A stretch of DNA of 64,000 nucleotides. It comes from a virus. Taxonomy: Duplodnaviria > Caudoviricetes. The stretch lies in the IMG/VR virus record IMGVR_UViG_3300037722_000745, positions 224,001-288,000 of that record. One strand, given 5' to 3'. The notes beneath the pieces are model-generated. The model ran no database searches and was not told where the DNA came from. It saw nothing but the letters and a program-made list of their open reading frames with translations. The position numbers and the translations under genes are program-made. Positions within the stretch are counted from its first letter, which is position 1; the number at the start of each line of letters is the position of its first letter. Of this stretch, positions 4,774-15,418 are shown in pieces.

Positions 4774-5346
4774 TCAAGTCCTAGTTACACCACCGGGATG
4801 CAATTCGAAACCAATTTTCTCCCCCGTGGCGAGAAATTCTTGGGCGGCCCTCGCCAAAAGGGTGGAAGCAACCCCTATGAAGGGTAAATGCTCACCGCCC
4901 TCGCAGGTAGCAGCCCCCGCCACGCCCTCGGAATCGATGATGAAGTTCTCGTCCCAGACAACCCGTCCGAAGGCCCCATCAGCCGCCAGGGCCCCATGCA
5001 GACACGGAATCTTGGAGTCCCGGGCGAAGCCCTGGACGAGCTGTCGTGAGGCAGCATTGTCCAAGCAATCGATGATCAAGTCGGTGTTGATGAGCAACTC
5101 CCGAACGTTGACCTCGGTGAGCTTGTGCGGCACGACCGTCGGCTTAAGACCGAACATAAACAACAGGGTTTGCCCGAGCGCCTGAGCCTTGTTCTTACCC
5201 ACGCTCGGCTTGCCGTGGAATTGGGCCAGGGTGTTCTTCTGTTCCACCCGGTCGAAGTCGATGATCTTGAGGTCGGCCTCACCCCGGAGGAACAAGGCCA
5301 AGTGGGAGCCTAGAGCGCCGGCTCCAACGATGGTTACGTACTTCAT
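4774..5346 (-). CDS. E1/ThiF-family ubiquitin-like adenylating enzyme
   Basis: VTIVGAGALGS nucleotide-binding motif, IIDFDRVEQKN, IIDCLDN, candidate catalytic Cys in AATCEG. Confidence 0.9.
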   Translation of the reverse strand: MKYVTIVGAGALGSHLALFLRGEADLKIIDFDRVEQKNTLAQFHGKPSVGKNKAQALGQTLLFMFGLKPTVVPHKLTEVNVRELLINTDLIIDCLDNAASRQLVQGFARDSKIPCLHGALAADGAFGRVVWDENFIIDSEGVAGAATCEGGEHLPFIGVASTLLARAAQEFLATGEKIGFELHPGGVTRT

Positions 5347-5365
5347 AGCGACCTCCTTGCGCTCT

Positions 5366-5800
5366 TTATCGCTTTGGCAAAAAGCGCCTAGATTCATTCA
5401 TGGCGTTTTCGTACTGACGCCATTGCACCAGCTCTTTGAGGTACTCAGCGATGCGTTCCTTGTTCGCTGGATGGTCAAGTTGTATGCCATCCTTAGTAAT
5501 CAACTCGACTACCTCATCCAGAGAGTGGTTCTCTGCTAACTTAGACACAGAACCGAAGGGGACCTTCGGCCTCAGTTGGATCAAGTTGTACGGACGAGCC
5601 TCGTTTGCCGAGAATCGGTCCACCACGAAATCCGTCAGGTCCACCTCCTGTGCGTCGATGCCGGGGATACCGCCCCGCAAGGCTTCAGAGACCCACCCTC
5701 GTACATCCCCGTCCGTTGAATCGAACGCCACCGGGTCCGGCAGGTCACCATTCTGACCGCCGTAGGTGACGTTCACCTTGGCTTCGTGTTCTGCGATCAT
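5366..5800 (-). CDS. ubiquitin-like protein (83 aa ending PKVPFG) with 61-aa C-terminal extension
   Basis: Beta-grasp-like pattern, Gly-ending motif at codon 5552-5554, position between JAB and E1 genes. Confidence 0.7.
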   Translation of the reverse strand: MIAEHEAKVNVTYGGQNGDLPDPVAFDSTDGDVRGWVSEALRGGIPGIDAQEVDLTDFVVDRFSANEARPYNLIQLRPKVPFGSVSKLAENHSLDEVVELITKDGIQLDHPANKERIAEYLKELVQWRQYENAMNESRRFLPKR

Positions 5801-6201
5801 GTTATACCTCCTTGTGATCCAATCTTAGGCAGCCCCGACTCTCGCCGAAGCTGTTCCATCCAGGGGGGCTTGTACAGTGCAGGTCCCTTGCGGTAATCCA
5901 AGCGTCCCGGACCGACCCAACATAATTCGCAGAATCGATCCGCCGTAGTGATCCACCAGACAAGACGCTTACCCAAAGCCGCTTCAACCGCGTGGAAGGT
6001 CGTCACATCCTCATAGGACGGGCCGGGCTCTCCAAACCCCGGGTGACTGTGAGCGAAACCCAGGACGCGCTCCCGGTGCTCCCAGATGACATCCCACAGC
6101 TCGCGGCTGTCGGGAAGGCTCCCCACGGTTCGACCCGCGGGATTGTGCCAGTAGATCGGGTTGCAATCCAGATCCACCAAAACTCCAGCTTCGACGCTCA
6201 T
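5797..6201 (-). CDS. JAB/MPN+ metallopeptidase
   Basis: E...HSHP...PSYED JAMM motif; in frame with an upstream Zn-ribbon ORF to 6459. Confidence 0.85.
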   Translation of the reverse strand: MSVEAGVLVDLDCNPIYWHNPAGRTVGSLPDSRELWDVIWEHRERVLGFAHSHPGFGEPGPSYEDVTTFHAVEAALGKRLVWWITTADRFCELCWVGPGRLDYRKGPALYKPPWMEQLRRESGLPKIGSQGGIT

Positions 6202-6459
6202 GTGATTCCCCGTGTTCTCCATTGTGCGGACCACTGAATGCACTGACCCAAACGGATCCACATAGCGACCCGGGTAGTCAGGATGTGTAGGGAGTTTGCC
6301 CTCCGAACAGTCGTATTGAGGATCCTCCGACCACCCGCAGTTAGAACAACCCCAAGGGCCGTAAATGACCCCAACCCCCACGTCGACCGAATCCTGCCTA
6401 CAGGGCTCGCTGCATTCCGGACATTTTAACTCTTGATGGTCCACTCGGTCTTCTCCCAT
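6202..6459 (-). CDS. Zn-ribbon hypothetical module read in frame into the JAB gene
   Basis: CPEC...WGCSNCGW; no stop before the JAB start. Confidence 0.5.
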
Positions 6460-6912: not shown

Positions 6913-7863
6913 CTAACCCACATGCCGAAACACTACAAGACGACCTTCCCGCTCCGCCTGGCGAATGACCGGCGGCAGAGATTCTAAACTCAACCAAGCA
7001 TCCCCGCGGGTGCCGCCCGCAAAATCCGTGTCGTCGTAGTGTGCCGTCAGACAGATGCCCGCGTCGATGATCTGTAGAGTCCGAGCGTCGCATGTGCACT
7101 CGTAACGCCGCCCACCCATCCGGAACCGCACGACCATCTCGTTGCGTCGCGGGGCCTGCCGGTGATCGAGATACTCAGCCTCACCAACCGCGAGAGCCGC
7201 CCGAGCCGCGGTCCCGAAATCCTCTTGGGCCAACGCCCGCCGGCCAGCACCATCACCGAGCTGCTCCGCGATCTCCCGACGACGGGTTTCCCGCTGCCGT
7301 TCCTCTTCCTCACGCTGAAGGCGTTCCGCCAGCTCCCGCCGACGCCGCTCCGCCTCCAACCGCCGCCACCGCTCAAGCGTGAAGGCGACATCCAAAGCCG
7401 GCGACACCTCTCGGATATCAGCTAGCGTATCCTTGCCGTCCAGAAAGGCCGTCTGCACCTCGAACTCGGGCCCCAGAGGCATTTCTTGCTGGATGTAGAC
7501 CAACGGGCCGTCCTCGGACACGCGGCCCGCAGAGACCCGTACGAAGCGATCTAGGCCCGGTTCGATGAGATGGACCCGCTCCGTCTCGCTCTTAAAGGAG
7601 GCGAGCTTCCTTTGCGAAGCCGACACGAGCCGATCGCCGACCAGGTAGCCTACCTCTCGGTACTTGAGCTGCTCCGGCTCGGGATCACACACCTCCTGGA
7701 CCCGAGCCGTCCGACCGCCCACCGAGAACCGAACCCAGCCATGCTCCGCCGGCAGCCGACCCTCGATCACCCACCGACGTGGGCCCGACCGGAGGGACCT
7801 ACCCCCAATCCAAGGCGCGACAAGCGTCTCGCCTTCAGTCGCAAGTAAGTCTCTCCAACCCAT
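6913..7863 (-). CDS. conserved protein of the Ubl operon (coiled coil, Cys-containing C-terminal domain)
   Basis: Start MGWRDLL; charged coiled coil; RYECTCD...DAGICL; 5' part paralogous to 8330..8713. Confidence 0.75.
   Translation of the reverse strand: MGWRDLLATEGETLVAPWIGGRSLRSGPRRWVIEGRLPAEHGWVRFSVGGRTARVQEVCDPEPEQLKYREVGYLVGDRLVSASQRKLASFKSETERVHLIEPGLDRFVRVSAGRVSEDGPLVYIQQEMPLGPEFEVQTAFLDGKDTLADIREVSPALDVAFTLERWRRLEAERRRRELAERLQREEEERQRETRRREIAEQLGDGAGRRALAQEDFGTAARAALAVGEAEYLDHRQAPRRNEMVVRFRMGGRRYECTCDARTLQIIDAGICLTAHYDDTDFAGGTRGDAWLSLESLPPVIRQAEREGRLVVFRHVG
7583..7618. repeat. solitary CRISPR-repeat-like unit (family A) inside a CDS
   Basis: GTCTCGCTCTTAAAGGAGGCGAGCTTCCTTTGCGAA. 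Confidence 0.8.
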
Positions 7864-8084
7864 GGCCCAGCCACCTATTACACCGATTAGGCTGCCAGCA
7901 AACAACCAAAACGAAGGGATTCGCCCCATCAAAGTGGAATTACTACCACTGTCACGGCGTCCAAATTTTGGTTTGGGATGTCACATGAGGGTTAATTAAA
8001 CACCCTGATTTCAACGACGTGTTGGGTTTGGCCTACTTCCTGCAAGCCTGGCGGAGCCCTCCTGGGGCCAAAATGGAGATGAAA

Positions 8085-8329: not shown

Positions 8330-8713
8330 CTACCAGACGACGCCCCCACCTCGTTTTTCAAGCCGGCCCGCAGAGACCCGTACAAAGCGATCTAGGCCCG
8401 GTTCGATGAGATGGACCCGCTCCGCAGCACGGAGAACCTCCCCGTCCGCTTGTCCAGCCTGAACCGAGGACGGTACGAGGCGATCTCCAACGAGATAGCC
8501 AACCTGCCTGTGCCACAGGCTTTCTAACTCAGGTTCGGCCAGAGCCTTGACCTGAGCCTTACGTCCCTCCAACGCAAACTCAATCCAGCCATGCTCTACA
8601 GGAAGGCTCCCCTCGATGACCCAGCGACGGGAGCCCGACCGGAGGGACCGGCCCCCAACCCAAGGTGCGACAATCGTCTCACCTTCTTTCTGAAGTAGGG
8701 TCCTCCAAGTCAT
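8330..8713 (-). pseudogene. truncated 5' duplicate of 6913..7863
   Basis: MTWRTLLQKEGETIVAPWVGGRSLRSG...ERVHLIEPGLDRFVRVSAGR then unrelated tail. Confidence 0.75.
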
Positions 8714-9642
8714 GACTCTCCAACCCTAATCTTCCAGGACTCCAAACTCTCACCACGTCTTCTACGTCGGGCCAACTTCAGTCTTGCTTCGGGGGTACTA
8801 AGAGCCTTCGTTATAGCCTCGCTATGTTTGGCTTTAACTTCGGGGATACTGAGTGTCTGGGCTATAGCCCTACCGCGTTTCTCTTTCTCCCCAGGTTGAG
8901 CCCATTGGCCTTTCATCCTACGACTCATAGCGGCCAGCCGTTCCAAAGTCATTGATGCTTGAACACCAATCTTATGGCGCTTCTTCACCTCAGGTAGGGC
9001 CAGTCTCTTAGCTGCCTCAATGCTTAGCTTCTTTCGCACCTCACTTGTATACCCGGCTTTTTGAAGCTTGATGCGTTGCCCCCTTTCCTCGGCCGAGTAC
9101 CCAGCCCAAGATGCCTTAAGACCCGCACTACGTTTCTCCTTCTCACCGGGTCTGGAGTAAACCTCCAACATCTTAGCTCTACGACGAGCTTTAGAATCAG
9201 GTTGACTGCAGGCCAAGATCAACGCTTCACGGTGCCTAGCCTTTACGTCGGGCCGTGCCATAGCTAACTTTACCCCAGCACTGTTCTTAGCTCGAACCTC
9301 CGGCCTATTCTGAGCCTCTTTCCCAGACACCGACATTTTCCGTCGAGTCTCTGCCGAAGGCTTCCCGTTTGACCCACCTGTCTTCAGATTGTACCCAAGC
9401 GGAGACAGAGAGGTGGCCACCCATTTAATTTCCAGCGCATCCAATTCCTCTTTCGAGGATGCCTCACCAACGACCTCAAACACGAATTTGTCTCGGCCAT
9501 ACTTGGCGATAGCCGCCCGCAAAGCGTGGCAATGGCTGTCAGTCCTGAAATGATGTGACCACCTCTCCGAAGGGTTGATGGTTTGACCGTGGTAACATTT
9601 TCCGCTGACCAAACAACGAATCCTGTAAACCAAACCGTACAC
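8710..9642 (-). CDS. GIY-YIG homing endonuclease with NUMOD3-like repeats
   Basis: GLVYRIRC...YHGQT...R...E..GYN; SAETRRKMS-type basic repeats. Confidence 0.9.
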   Translation of the reverse strand: MYGLVYRIRCLVSGKCYHGQTINPSERWSHHFRTDSHCHALRAAIAKYGRDKFVFEVVGEASSKEELDALEIKWVATSLSPLGYNLKTGGSNGKPSAETRRKMSVSGKEAQNRPEVRAKNSAGVKLAMARPDVKARHREALILACSQPDSKARRRAKMLEVYSRPGEKEKRSAGLKASWAGYSAEERGQRIKLQKAGYTSEVRKKLSIEAAKRLALPEVKKRHKIGVQASMTLERLAAMSRRMKGQWAQPGEKEKRGRAIAQTLSIPEVKAKHSEAITKALSTPEARLKLARRRRRGESLESWKIRVGES

Positions 9643-9652
9643 AACCGCAGTT

Positions 9653-11590
9653 TTAGCAAAAGGCTGCTGGCTTCTGCAACAGATCCGTCTTGAGAATGGT
9701 TTCCACGAGGGTTACTCGCGGAGCGGCCTTTACCACTGCCCTACCTACCGGCGTGGCAGCGATCATGGCTCGGATGGTAGGCGGGATCGCGTAGGGATCC
9801 GCGAAGATCCCCTCGTCGATCATGAAGCACGGGATGCCGAGTTGGGCTGCCGTGTCCGTGACCGCGTGGTACATGGGGGAGCTGCGGACCTTCAAGAAGC
9901 CAAATGCAATCGGGTTGAGGCCCGAAGCTTGGACCGCCTTATGGAACGGGCCAGCCTCCTCATCTCCGACGAAGATAAACAACACATCCTCGTCCGGCTG
10001 AGGCTTATGTTGATTGAGAGCCCGAACCCCCGCTCCGTAGTCAGTCCCTCCTCCTGCATGGATCCCGCGGAACGCCTGTTCGACGCCCGCTGCGGATTCA
10101 TGCTTAAGGGCAATCTCTCGCCCCGTAGTGTTGAAGACCGAGATGTGCACCTGGTCCTTGGGGAAGCCCTGTAGGAACTTCGCCAAGTAGCGCTTGGCTT
10201 CGGTGATCGCGTTCTGCATGGATCCCGAGATGTCCACCATGAAGTAGATCCGCAAACCCTTCACGACTTCCTCGACCGCCGCCTTGAGGGCGTTGTCGGC
10301 CGCCTCGTTCAGCTTCTCTTGGGTCGCCTTCGACCGCACTCGGGTCGCGATGTTCGCTGCCCGCATGTCGTCGGCTTCCTTAGTGGCACACTCCCACCGC
10401 TCTCGAATCTCCTGGACCTCAAGAAGTCCAAGCTCTTCGAGCGTTGGGGTTGCGATCAAAAGGTCCTTGTTGGAAAGAGACCCTGCCTCGATGGCTGCCG
10501 CCACAATCGCCCGCGTCAGCCCCATACCCTTCGGCAGGAGCCCCACGATGCGCTTGAAGTTAGGCTTGGTCGCAACGATAGTCTCGCAGACCTGCTCCTC
10601 CGAAAGGCCCTCCCAGGACTCCGCAGCCTTGACAGCCTGGCCGATGGCGACGGTACGGTGACCCTCGTCGGCCTGCTGCTGCCCCCACCGCAGCGTCTCG
10701 AAGAACTTTGGTGAGGTCGGCTTGTACCGGCAGGCGATGGCGAGTTCGATCACCTTCGTCCGGAAGCCCGCCTTGACGAGGCCCTCCAACATCTGAGGGT
10801 TCTCTTCACGGTACCGGAGCCACTTCTCCGCCGCCTTGGGCCAACGACCCATGAACGGCCGACGAGCGGACTTGCCAAAGCCCAGCTCCCGGTTGATCTC
10901 GGCCACCTGCGGCAGCCGTAGGATGTCGTGGATCCGCATTAGAAGCTTGGGATCGAATGTCTTGATCTCGTTCTTCTGTTGTGCCCCGTCACCTTGAGAG
11001 CGGGACCGGGTGAGCAGCAGCATGGCCTCACCGACATCCCGGTAATCCTCGTCGAAGAACAGGACCTTGCCGTTCTCAACAACCGGGTCACCCTTGCGGT
11101 ATTGCACGAGCATGAACGCCGCGAGAATGACCTTCAGGTCCCGGTGCTCCTGCCCGAATGCGTAGCTGGCCCACTTGGCGGCGAACTCGTTGTCGAGCTT
11201 CCAGACCTCGGCGACCTGCTTGTACATCCAGATCACGACCTCCGGGTAGAGGCCGGGCGGCTGGTAGCGACCAACAGCGCGGTTGCCGTCCTTAACGATG
11301 ACATCGCCCTGAAGCACTGGGGCGAGCGTCGCGGGGTTCCGACCCGTGGTCATCTTCCCGAGCTTGACCTTGGTGCCCTTCCGACGGCCCACGCCCTTGC
11401 GAAGCTCGTAGACGATCTTGTCGCCCTCTTCCTCTGCGTGGGTCACCGGCAGCCACTTCGTGCCCACCACGGAGCCAGGATCTGGAATCACTACGCCTGG
11501 TCGGTTGTGCATTGCGTGATCAGAATACGAGAGGACCGTCTGGAGGATTCTCTCAGCCGGCCCGAGTGCGTTCTGTTCGTGATTTGGCAC
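9653..11590 (-). CDS. vWA-domain protein with large helical N-terminus (possibly TROVE/Ro60-like)
   Basis: MIDAS motif FMVDISGSM, GGTDY, FVGDEE; GTG start at 11590 after GAGG. Confidence 0.8.
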   Translation of the reverse strand: MPNHEQNALGPAERILQTVLSYSDHAMHNRPGVVIPDPGSVVGTKWLPVTHAEEEGDKIVYELRKGVGRRKGTKVKLGKMTTGRNPATLAPVLQGDVIVKDGNRAVGRYQPPGLYPEVVIWMYKQVAEVWKLDNEFAAKWASYAFGQEHRDLKVILAAFMLVQYRKGDPVVENGKVLFFDEDYRDVGEAMLLLTRSRSQGDGAQQKNEIKTFDPKLLMRIHDILRLPQVAEINRELGFGKSARRPFMGRWPKAAEKWLRYREENPQMLEGLVKAGFRTKVIELAIACRYKPTSPKFFETLRWGQQQADEGHRTVAIGQAVKAAESWEGLSEEQVCETIVATKPNFKRIVGLLPKGMGLTRAIVAAAIEAGSLSNKDLLIATPTLEELGLLEVQEIRERWECATKEADDMRAANIATRVRSKATQEKLNEAADNALKAAVEEVVKGLRIYFMVDISGSMQNAITEAKRYLAKFLQGFPKDQVHISVFNTTGREIALKHESAAGVEQAFRGIHAGGGTDYGAGVRALNQHKPQPDEDVLFIFVGDEEAGPFHKAVQASGLNPIAFGFLKVRSSPMYHAVTDTAAQLGIPCFMIDEGIFADPYAIPPTIRAMIAATPVGRAVVKAAPRVTLVETILKTDLLQKPAAFC

Positions 11591-11635
11591 GATCCACCTC
11601 TCTCGCAACCCTCCGCATGGGAGGGGAATTGCCGC

Positions 11636-11905: not shown

Positions 11906-12136
11906 TTGACCGTGGATCACACCTACGACCGCCGCCCGAAGACCGCCACTGATCGCGAGTTCCAAGAGATGGCCGAGATCTACCTCAAGAAGCTCGGCTA
12001 CTCGCCTAAGCAGGTCCGCAGCTGGACTCGCAACATGGCCCAGGCCATCGAGAAGGCGTTGAAGTCCTCGCGTGAAACTCGCGAAGTTGAATACCATATC
12101 GGTCTCGAAGAGGAAGGCGAGGAACGTCTTCGCTAA
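11906..12136 (+). CDS. hypothetical protein
   Basis: ORF with plausible composition. Confidence 0.5.
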   Translation: MTVDHTYDRRPKTATDREFQEMAEIYLKKLGYSPKQVRSWTRNMAQAIEKALKSSRETREVEYHIGLEEEGEERLR

Positions 12137-12336
12137 CCATCAGACTTCACCCCGGTTCTTCGTTTTCCATACGTTCTGTATCTGTGACACAAGGCGCACA
12201 CCACGTCGCATTTGGCAGCCTCTTCCTTGGTTCGTTTGAGAGAGCCCGTCCTGCTTGCCGAGCCGAGATCGAACGCCTTAGTTCTTGGATCGCGATGATC
12301 GAAGTCCATCGCCCAATACGGATGCGAATACCACGG
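12133..12336 (-). pseudogene. HNH endonuclease C-terminal fragment
   Basis: MDFDHRDP...EAAKCDVVCALCHRYRT; N-terminus replaced by tRNA sequence. Confidence 0.75.
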
Positions 12337-12377
12337 GTGTTCCCGAAACAGGCGTCCTACCAGTGGACTACACCCCG
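12337..12377 (-). pseudogene. tRNA-Pro(CGG) 5' half
   Basis: CGGGGTG, D-arm, CCTGT-TTCGGGA-ACA then abrupt switch to HNH sequence. Confidence 0.65.
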
Positions 12378-12378
12378 G

Positions 12379-12450
12379 TACGCGCAGAAGGATTTGAACC
12401 TTCATTTCTCGCTCATCAGACGAGGGTCCTAACCGTTGGACGATGCGCGC
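12379..12450 (-). tRNA. tRNA-Ile(GAT)
   Basis: Cloverleaf, loop CTGATGA. Confidence 0.85.
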
Positions 12451-12534
12451 GTGGTCTGAAATTATGCTGCAAGCCGGCACAGGTGTTCGTACTACGACCT
12501 ACGCACGGCTCAAGCTCGGAAAGCCAGTTTGAAG

Positions 12535-14609: not shown

Positions 14610-14649
14610 TTACCCTACGGATGTAGGGCCTGTATTTGTTTCGCACTAG

Positions 14650-14720
14650 CTCGGGGTGAGAGATTCGAACTCCCGTAAACAGTACCAGAAACTGCTGTCC
14701 TACCATTAGACGAACCCCGA
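14650..14720 (-). tRNA. tRNA-Gln(CTG), second copy
   Basis: Cloverleaf, loop TTCTGGT. Confidence 0.9.
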
Positions 14721-14732
14721 AAAACTACCGCC

Positions 14733-14963
14733 TCACGCGCTGCCCGTATAAGCCACGCTGAAAACCATCCCCGACATCACGAGCACTTCCTGGCCGTGAG
14801 TCAAGCTCCCGTTCATCTCGTGGTACTTCTCCCGTAGCTTGCAATGAAACACCACCGTCGGGTTGTACTCCGACTTGAGTTCCGCCAGCTCAACCACATC
14901 CTCGTAGCTCAGAACCTCTGCGTCGGTCTGGAAGTCCTGTCCATTGACTTTGAAACTGGTCAC
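14733..14963 (-). CDS. stand-alone ubiquitin-like protein (multiubiquitin-domain type), 76 aa
   Basis: GGAGG then GTG; pattern FKVNG..LSYEDVVELA..TV.F..G.L..GQ.V.V..GMVFSV..TGSA. Confidence 0.7.
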   Translation of the reverse strand: MTSFKVNGQDFQTDAEVLSYEDVVELAELKSEYNPTVVFHCKLREKYHEMNGSLTHGQEVLVMSGMVFSVAYTGSA

Positions 14964-15241
14964 GGTTCCTCCGCGATTCGGGCCAGAACATGCCCATGGC
15001 ACGGATCCGGGACACACCAGCAGCCCAGCACCTTACCACGGAGTTCCTGCTTCACTAGGCGGAGCAACGAAGGCTTACCGCGGATCCAAGTCTCGTACTT
15101 CTCGATAGCTTCCTCACGAGTCGCGACCTTGAACTGTGCCCGAGTGTTCTCTTTGTGGCTGTAAGGATTACCGTAGATCGACGGACGTCCGACGTAGACA
15201 TCGTAGCGATCTCGACGACAATGCACGACCCGAGTGCTCAT
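14960..15241 (-). CDS. DUF4326-family protein
   Basis: YVGRPSIYGNPY ... LRGKVLGCWC.P..CHGHVL. Confidence 0.9.
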   Translation of the reverse strand: MSTRVVHCRRDRYDVYVGRPSIYGNPYSHKENTRAQFKVATREEAIEKYETWIRGKPSLLRLVKQELRGKVLGCWCVPDPCHGHVLARIAEEP

Positions 15242-15327: not shown

Positions 15328-15418
15328 TGGCGGAAGGTGAGGGGATCGAACCCTCGCACGCCTCATCAGCGCGACCTCAGATTAGCAATCTGGTGTCTTA
15401 CCACTCGACCAACCTTCC
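15328..15418 (-). tRNA. tRNA-Ser(GCT)
   Basis: Loop TTGCTAA, long variable arm, G73, CCA. Confidence 0.9.

Follow-up and report, generated by a model that had tools for sequence, protein, structure and literature searches.

The 76-residue open reading frame at positions 14733-14963 of the window, by which we mean the whole 64,000-nucleotide stretch of viral DNA analysed here, is, as judged from its homologues and from a predicted structure, a real gene for a beta-grasp protein of the Multi_ubiq class, and it belongs to a sister family of Type II BubA, the ubiquitin-like protein (Ubl) of bacterial Bub operons. The leading explanation for its presence in phages is molecular mimicry of BubA, in which the phage protein would occupy BubBD and/or BubE or act as a substitute tag; we give this reading a probability of roughly 0.38. 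What the analysis adds is a tail signature, T-G-[N/S]-A where cellular relatives have T-D-K-S, the occurrence of enzyme fusions, the usual lack of an E1 or a JAB peptidase in the carriers, and the rejection of a general link to the E1/JAB cassette of the phage itself. The window comes from a 323-kb IMG/VR viral record with an estimated completeness of 68%, and the orphan Ubl is the only Multi_ubiq match in that record. The gene and its immediate surroundings are as follows.

14733-14963, minus strand: orphan Ubl gene, 76 aa, single beta-grasp (ORF list and sequence, Pfam Multi_ubiq, homologues, AF2, Foldseek); stop codon TGA at 14733-14735, GTG start at 14961-14963
14968-14972, minus strand: Shine-Dalgarno sequence GGAGG, with a 4-nt spacer to the GTG start of the Ubl gene (read from the sequence)
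14960-15241, minus strand: DUF4326 gene, 93 aa, upstream of the Ubl gene (Pfam DUF4326, 84.4 bits; phrog_464)
14649-14720, minus strand: tRNA-Gln(CTG), 12 nt downstream of the Ubl stop codon (ARAGORN), context only
15328-15418, minus strand: tRNA-Ser(GCT), upstream of the DUF4326-Ubl pair (ARAGORN), context only

The GTG start of the Ubl gene overlaps the TGA stop of the DUF4326 gene as GTGA, and from this layout of stop and start codons the Ubl gene is predicted to be translationally coupled to its upstream neighbour. Both flanking tRNA genes are part of a same-strand array of 43 tRNAs and a tmRNA. A longer, 94-aa frame beginning at an upstream GTG was considered and found to be unsupported, as the nearest homologue is exactly 76 aa long and aligns end to end.

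The membership of the protein in the Multi_ubiq class was established with several kinds of comparison. The Pfam profile Multi_ubiq (PF14452) matched with 24.7 bits (E 2.7e-5) over profile positions 3-68 of 69, a score that lies only 0.2 bits above the curated gathering threshold of 24.5 bits and is marginal when taken alone; relatives of the protein scored 23-34 bits. A phmmer search against PDB sequences returned a single chain, 9cd2, the multi-ubiquitin protein of E. coli ZDHYS365, at E 0.0018, with the match falling on its third, C-terminal beta-grasp. The 9cd2 protein is the Ubl of a Type II Bub operon (Gong et al., PMC11601603). When 1.84 billion representatives were scanned in full with HMMER, 34 homologues were obtained at E <= 1e-3, the best of them 62% identical over 76 aa, and the alignment of homologues, A1, contained invariant and near-invariant columns. 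With this alignment, comprising 21 of the HMMER homologues, as input, AF2 predicted a strand-strand-helix-strands fold with a pLDDT of 93.1 and a pTM of 0.80, in which a five-residue tail is less ordered; the alignment-based model was used in place of the single-sequence one, which was poor (pLDDT 69). Foldseek against the PDB placed 9cd2 at the top (E 1.7e-4, TM 0.69), followed by 9ea8_B, the Citrobacter BubA complexed with BubCD, and then by the multi-ubiquitin structures 8u38 and 9d5a. In addition, a language-model atlas placed the orphan Ubl among Multi_ubiq clusters. There were no matches to it in PHROGs, PADLOC or NCBIfam.

These results bear directly on whether the frame is a gene at all. 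It could be a chance frame or a decaying, non-functional remnant between tRNA genes, and both the narrow Pfam margin over the cut-off and a word-index protein search that returned only the orphan Ubl itself would fit such a reading. However, a full-length homologue at 62% identity with 33 further matches, the conserved alignment columns, the confident AF2 model, and the strong ribosome-binding site together with the stop/start coupling all speak against it, and we consider its probability negligible; conservation effectively refutes it. A first-pass annotation made from the letters of the window had described the frame as a 76-aa ORF with a strong ribosome-binding site among tRNAs, and had noted a match to the multiubiquitin-domain pattern. 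The GGAGG sequence, the flanking tRNA-Ser and tRNA-Gln genes, the profile search and the AF2 model confirm both descriptions, and the accompanying statement that Bil and Bub operons use this class of Ubl agrees with the literature for Type II Bil and Type II Bub (PMC11601603).

Several other features of the surrounding DNA were recorded. A 127-aa ORF at 8330-8713 (-) and a 339-aa ORF at 6913-7932 (-) resemble each other closely over some 110 residues at their N-termini; immediately upstream of the 127-aa ORF is a gene for a GIY-YIG endonuclease (8710-9642), and a gene for a VWA-domain protein adjoins at 9653-11608. Either a duplication or the disruption of a gene by a homing endonuclease may account for the two ORFs. 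A further ORF of 115 aa at 12133-12480 (-) overlaps the tRNA-Ile gene at 12377-12450 and resembles a 228-aa HNH-type endonuclease (L003:3257-3943, -) that divides the DUF4326 gene from the Ubl gene in another carrier, G002, which suggests that mobile endonucleases move around this region.

The most informative part of the orphan Ubl is its C-terminus. The tails of 9cd2 (...GMIFYVTQTDKS), of the Myxococcota BubA (...GMIFNVTRTDKS) and of the orphan Ubl (...GMVFSVAYTGSA) align in the same register and have the same length. Among 120 cellular-type relatives, which were gathered around a single query, the Myxococcota protein, 111 end in T-D-K-S, 119 have Ser as the last residue and 119 have Thr at position -4. 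In the phage-type family (n=38), Thr at -4 is found in all 38 members, while position -3 is occupied by Gly (30 members), Ser (4), Asp (3) or Asn (1). At position -2 there is Asn in 22 members and Ser in 8, and the chain ends with Ala in 34 members and with Ser in the other 4. The tail that follows position -3 consists of two residues in 38/39 phage-type members. The exception is a 295-aa member (L008:1304-2191, +) that ends in ...VYTG followed by the stop codon, without [N/S]-A. In every phage-type member the beta-grasp stands at the extreme C-terminus, and extra domains are always N-terminal.

By this comparison of aligned tails, the phage family retains the length of the BubA tail and its anchoring Thr, and D-K-S has been systematically swapped for G-[N/S]-A. 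The first-pass annotation had instead explained the TGSA end as a buried or blocked terminal Gly that could jam the enzymes of the host. That explanation does not hold. On the alignment, TGSA is a rewritten copy of the native BubA end and not a blocked glycine, because the nearest cellular relatives end in T-D-K-S in the same register and have no terminal Gly themselves; moreover, Gly occupies position -3 in just 30/38 phage-type members, and the tail matches the BubA end residue for residue. By analogy with other Ubls, a conserved, free tail of fixed length is what would be expected of a protein whose end enters an enzyme active site.

Such a tail raises the question of whether the phage Ubl could itself be a tag that is conjugated through its terminal Ala by Bub-type or other E1 enzymes of the host, with the N-terminal domains as cargo. 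The retention of a conserved free tail in the BubA register is compatible with this, as is the placement of the cargo, which is N-terminal throughout; diverse N-terminal domains are likewise found on the Ubl1 proteins of Bil and Bub (PMC11601603), and the member that ends right after Gly indicates that the end can vary. Nevertheless, none of the three terminal residues matches the near-invariant D-K-S of the cellular proteins, so that a simple equivalence as substrates is hard to maintain, and there is no candidate target. We regard conjugation of the phage protein as improbable.

The distribution of the tail is restricted. All the members of the T-G-[N/S]-A family that were found lie in viral or metagenome DNA, in 22 viral records and about 30 metagenome representatives. 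Eighteen of the viral records came from IMG/VR by means of a hand-made DNA pattern (G-M-x-F-x4-T-G-[N/S]-A-stop), and all 18 of the stretches it matched were true members by hmmsearch (E 1e-16 to 1e-24); the remaining four are the present record (G000), LR756511, G311 and G317. Carriers span 5 to 600 kb and 39 to 61% G+C; three are classed as proviruses by IMG/VR, and several have terminal repeats. Among 50,697 phage records searched with tblastn, the only carrier was LR756511.1, an uncultured phage of 595 kb. No NCBI or UniRef source or accession was found for any of the 10 representatives that were looked up, their sources being Logan, JGI or ENA assemblies. When one genome from each of 185,579 prokaryote species was scanned with a pattern, no members were returned; this is weak evidence of absence because the method is insensitive: peptide-pattern scans of IMG/VR missed most of the viral members that the DNA pattern recovered. 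Most members of the family are bare proteins of 70-80 aa. In a quick maximum-likelihood tree, for which the alignment included the tail columns and the TDKS-type sample was gathered around a single query, one branch (SH-aLRT 98) separated the 42 TDKS-type sequences from the 51 of phage type, and none of 500 shuffles of the labels gave a value as low. The phage-type branches of this tree are several times longer than the TDKS-type ones.

We also asked what accompanies the Ubl in its carriers. ThiF was present in 1/17 Ubl-ascertained viral records, a 363-kb phage, and in the six Ubl-ascertained viral genomes that are at least 90% complete neither ThiF nor Prok-JAB was found (0/6 each). The Bub E2 domain DUF6791 was absent from the five Ubl-bearing viral records examined for it, the present one included, and the BubE domain DUF6527 had no match in the present record. 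An all-against-all BLAST of the neighbours at 20 loci revealed no conserved neighbouring gene. Because most carriers lack a phage-encoded E1, E2 or JAB and because no neighbour is conserved, the family is best described, at the level of gene content, as a stand-alone accessory gene whose partner is not encoded alongside it. The orphan status assigned to the gene in the first-pass annotation is thus upheld across the family.

Specific associations were examined and set aside. Linkage to tRNA genes was rejected, as no tRNAs lie beside the homologues examined, and so was a TGS-like role in tRNA binding, for which the fold match to the TGS domain of a phage ThrRS was weak (E 0.05). Obligatory pairing with DUF4326 was rejected as well: the pair is seen only in the present record and in G002, and the DUF4326 loci L004 and L005 have no adjoining Ubl. 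A 188-aa huge-phage protein in G311 (L053:1498-2064, -) has a sub-threshold likeness to DUF6527, and hence to BubE, of 19 bits, and contains a PSI...YHGW motif resembling the Ser-His dyad region. The idea that this protein tracks the Ubl was also dropped, since it occurs in G311, G312 (L055) and G318 (L056), of which only G311 has the Ubl, and is absent from the Ubl carriers G000, LR756511 and G317, so that there is no correlation. A weak DUF6527-like match was also seen in G328 (L077).

The present record does contain an E1-like and a JAB-like gene, which lie together in a cassette with a Ubl of their own.

4774-5397, minus strand: ThiF-like E1 (Pfam ThiF, 77.6 bits)
5366-5800, minus strand: Ubl-containing ORF, unrelated to the orphan Ubl
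5797-6459, minus strand: JAB-like peptidase (Prok-JAB, 22.3 bits)

This cassette (4774-6459, -) is 9.3 kb from the orphan Ubl and holds the sole ThiF and JAB genes of the record. Homologues of the phage E1 were found in Myxococcota MAGs at 51-60% identity. In the collection of 50,697 phage records, the only close E1 homologue other than that of the Ubl carrier is in KX853510.1 (Virus Rctr197k, 176768-177394; 58% identity), where no Ubl of the orphan family was detected.

By analogy, the cassette is a possible user of the orphan Ubl, which would then be the second tag of an E2-less system of the phage's own, processed or activated by the same ThiF-like E1 and JAB peptidase. Five carriers (G000, LR756511, G311, G317 and G327) have both the Ubl and an E1/JAB cassette, the sole Ubl-positive entry among the 50,697 phage records is one of only two that are E1-positive, and a single archaeal E1, UbaA, serves SAMP1-3. 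Yet the co-occurrence fails in both directions, for neither ThiF nor JAB is found in the six near-complete Ubl carriers, and the Ubl is missing from 6/8 complete E1-bearing phages and present in only 2/18 E1-bearing IMG/VR phages; five Myxococcota genomes with the cassette are all without it. The orphan Ubl and the cassette are never adjacent, being 9 to more than 200 kb apart. The two Ubls of the phage also have different tails and are unrelated (BLASTP E 1.0; hhalign probability 0.4%), as the first-pass annotation had supposed. The 0/6 count led us to reject dependence on the phage's own cassette as a general rule, and even for this phage we consider such a use of the orphan Ubl quite improbable.

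A different picture emerges from the domains to which the Ubl is joined. One member is a fusion with a complete ThyX (L063:1771-2691, -; Thy1 152 bits), in which the Ubl forms the C-terminus, and another is a fusion with a MazG-like domain (L050:1006-1719, +, in G317), whose gene adjoins one for a YfbR-like HD 5'-deoxynucleotidase. The ThyX-fused and MazG-fused Ubl domains group together in the tree. The N-terminal parts of other members are zinc-ribbon-like, coiled-coil-like or without assignment. In G002 the gene order is DUF4326, the HNH endonuclease inserted on the other strand, Ubl, and then an overlapping glycosyltransferase gene. DUF4326 proteins have been predicted to process intermediates derived from ADP-ribose or arising in DNA modification (PMC9503650, PMC7824862). 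A link of the Ubl family to nucleotide metabolism thus appears recurrent in these gene contexts and is far from universal.

These fusions raise the alternative that the beta-grasp and its tail form a non-covalent docking module, tethering DUF4326, MazG-like and ThyX proteins to a common partner or to each other, with no involvement of conjugation or of Bub. The two fusions and their clustering in the tree are what such a module would produce, as are the translational coupling to DUF4326 in the window, the recurrence of the DUF4326-Ubl order in G002 and the many other variable N-terminal extensions. On the other hand, most members are bare and have no conserved neighbour, DUF4326 homologues occur elsewhere in phages without an adjoining Ubl, and the Ubl domain is never N-terminal or internal; its free tail of strictly fixed length is typical of Ubls that insert their C-terminus into an active site. 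Taken together, a docking role independent of Bub is possible and, in our view, rather unlikely.

Mimicry of BubA remains the reading that we prefer. The partner would be a host protein, because no partner is encoded with the gene, and mimicry is judged likeliest because the Bub and Bil E1-E2 enzymes and the BubE peptidase are the sole partners known for this class of beta-grasp. In the proposed mechanism, the phage Ubl would dock in a Bub-type E2-E1 of the host (BubBD), and possibly in BubE, in place of the host BubA. Once docked, it would either block activation or serve as a harmless substitute tag, and the fused members would deliver their N-terminal cargo by the same docking. A homologue of a host-system component is found in 22 viral records, in variable contexts and without its cognate enzymes, as is characteristic of a counter-defence mimic. 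These family-wide data make a host-directed role more plausible, on sequence grounds, than a reader of the window by itself could have known.

We looked for possible targets in Myxococcota, the candidate host phylum. Multi_ubiq was found in 6/301 genomes, or about 2%. One of the loci (L051; G135, C1:1075500-1085500) encodes an HTH protein, a Peptidase_M78 protein, a Multi_ubiq protein ending in TDKS, and a protein with DUF6791 and ThiF. Immediately downstream, at the position expected for BubE, is an IS21-type IstB gene, and this Type II Bub-like operon may have been interrupted. Type II Bub operons in Myxococcota are plausible targets, as far as their gene content indicates.

The published biochemistry of these systems provides a background for such an activity. 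When Type II BilA carries one additional Ala, ATP is kept from binding in its E1 (PMC10557695), and the Bub mechanism consists of adenylation followed by transfer via Tyr and Ser oxyester intermediates (PMC11601596). In its more specific form, the proposal is that phages ranging from 50-kb temperate ones to 600-kb giants carry BubA mimics whose T-G-N-A tail occupies the Bub E2-E1 without productive transfer; we put this version forward tentatively, as a possibility and less than a probability. Several considerations weigh against mimicry in general. Multi_ubiq is rare in the candidate host phylum, and Bub operons have so far not been shown to protect against phage (PMC11601596); in addition, the ThyX and MazG-like fusions and the coupling to DUF4326 fit a docking module at least as well.

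None of the papers found in our literature search describes a mimic or inhibitor of Bil or Bub that is encoded by a phage. If the more specific form of BubA mimicry proves correct, the family would be the first phage counter-defence against a bacterial ubiquitin-like conjugation system, and it would constitute indirect genetic evidence that Bub operons act against phages. Bub is a recently described ubiquitination-like pathway with an unusual oxyester chemistry and no demonstrated biological role. The viral family points to features of the BubA tail that are read by the enzymes, and it offers a way to ask whether selection favours phages that interfere with Bub; if it does, an antiviral role of Bub would follow. 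It also supplies natural tail-swap variants, together with the ThyX and MazG-like fusions, for the published in vitro assays.

Viruses that carry a tag without the enzymes that attach it are known from eukaryotes. Eukaryotic-virus homologues of ubiquitin, such as the baculovirus v-ubi, are copies of a host tag without conjugating enzymes, and the v-ubi type has kept the host-type Gly-Gly end and remains highly identical to the ubiquitin of the host. The phage family shares with v-ubi the possession of a tag without enzymes, whereas its end has been rewritten and its sequence is highly diverged. In E2-less systems, such as the archaeal SAMP1-3/UbaA/HvJAMM1 and the Thermus TtuB/TtuC, the nearest parallel is that this phage, too, combines an E2-less ThiF/JAB cassette with two small Ubls that are unrelated to each other. 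The orphan family differs from those systems in that, family-wide, it does not co-occur with ThiF or JAB and has no Gly-Gly end.

Among the bacterial systems, Type II BilA of the BilABCD antiphage system (Chambers et al., PMC10557695; Hor et al., 10.1101/2023.09.04.556158) has the same multi-ubiquitin-class beta-grasp. The reactive Gly of BilA can be followed by additional residues, which keep the E1 blocked until BilC removes them (PMC10557695). A universal Gly followed by a non-conserved tail of up to 9 residues characterizes BilA (PMC10557695), in contrast to the phage family, in which only two residues follow the -3 position, the end is conserved and the Gly is present in 30/38 members. 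Furthermore, the orphan Ubl has no bilB, bilC or bilD, and the ThiF and JAB genes of its record belong to the separate cassette with its own Ubl.

The closest relative is BubA of the Type II Bub system (BubA-BubBD-BubE, formerly 6E.2; PDB 9cd2; Ye et al., PMC11601596; Gong et al., PMC11601603), which belongs to the same Pfam family and has the same fold. The orphan Ubl probably descends from BubA but lacks what marks a working Bub or Bil tag, having no operon, the wrong tail, and neither the Gly nor the variable tail of the BilA type. The phage family differs from BubA in its T-G-[N/S]-A tail as opposed to T-D-K-S, in having no BubBD or BubE gene nearby or, in most carriers, genome-wide, and in occurring only in viral and metagenome DNA with sequences far more divergent than the cellular ones. 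That the phage protein works like BubA is an argument by analogy, and the likeness on which it draws is considerable: 9cd2 is the best match in both sequence and structure, a free tail of equal length follows the invariant Thr in both families, and both include single-domain proteins as well as proteins with N-terminal extensions.
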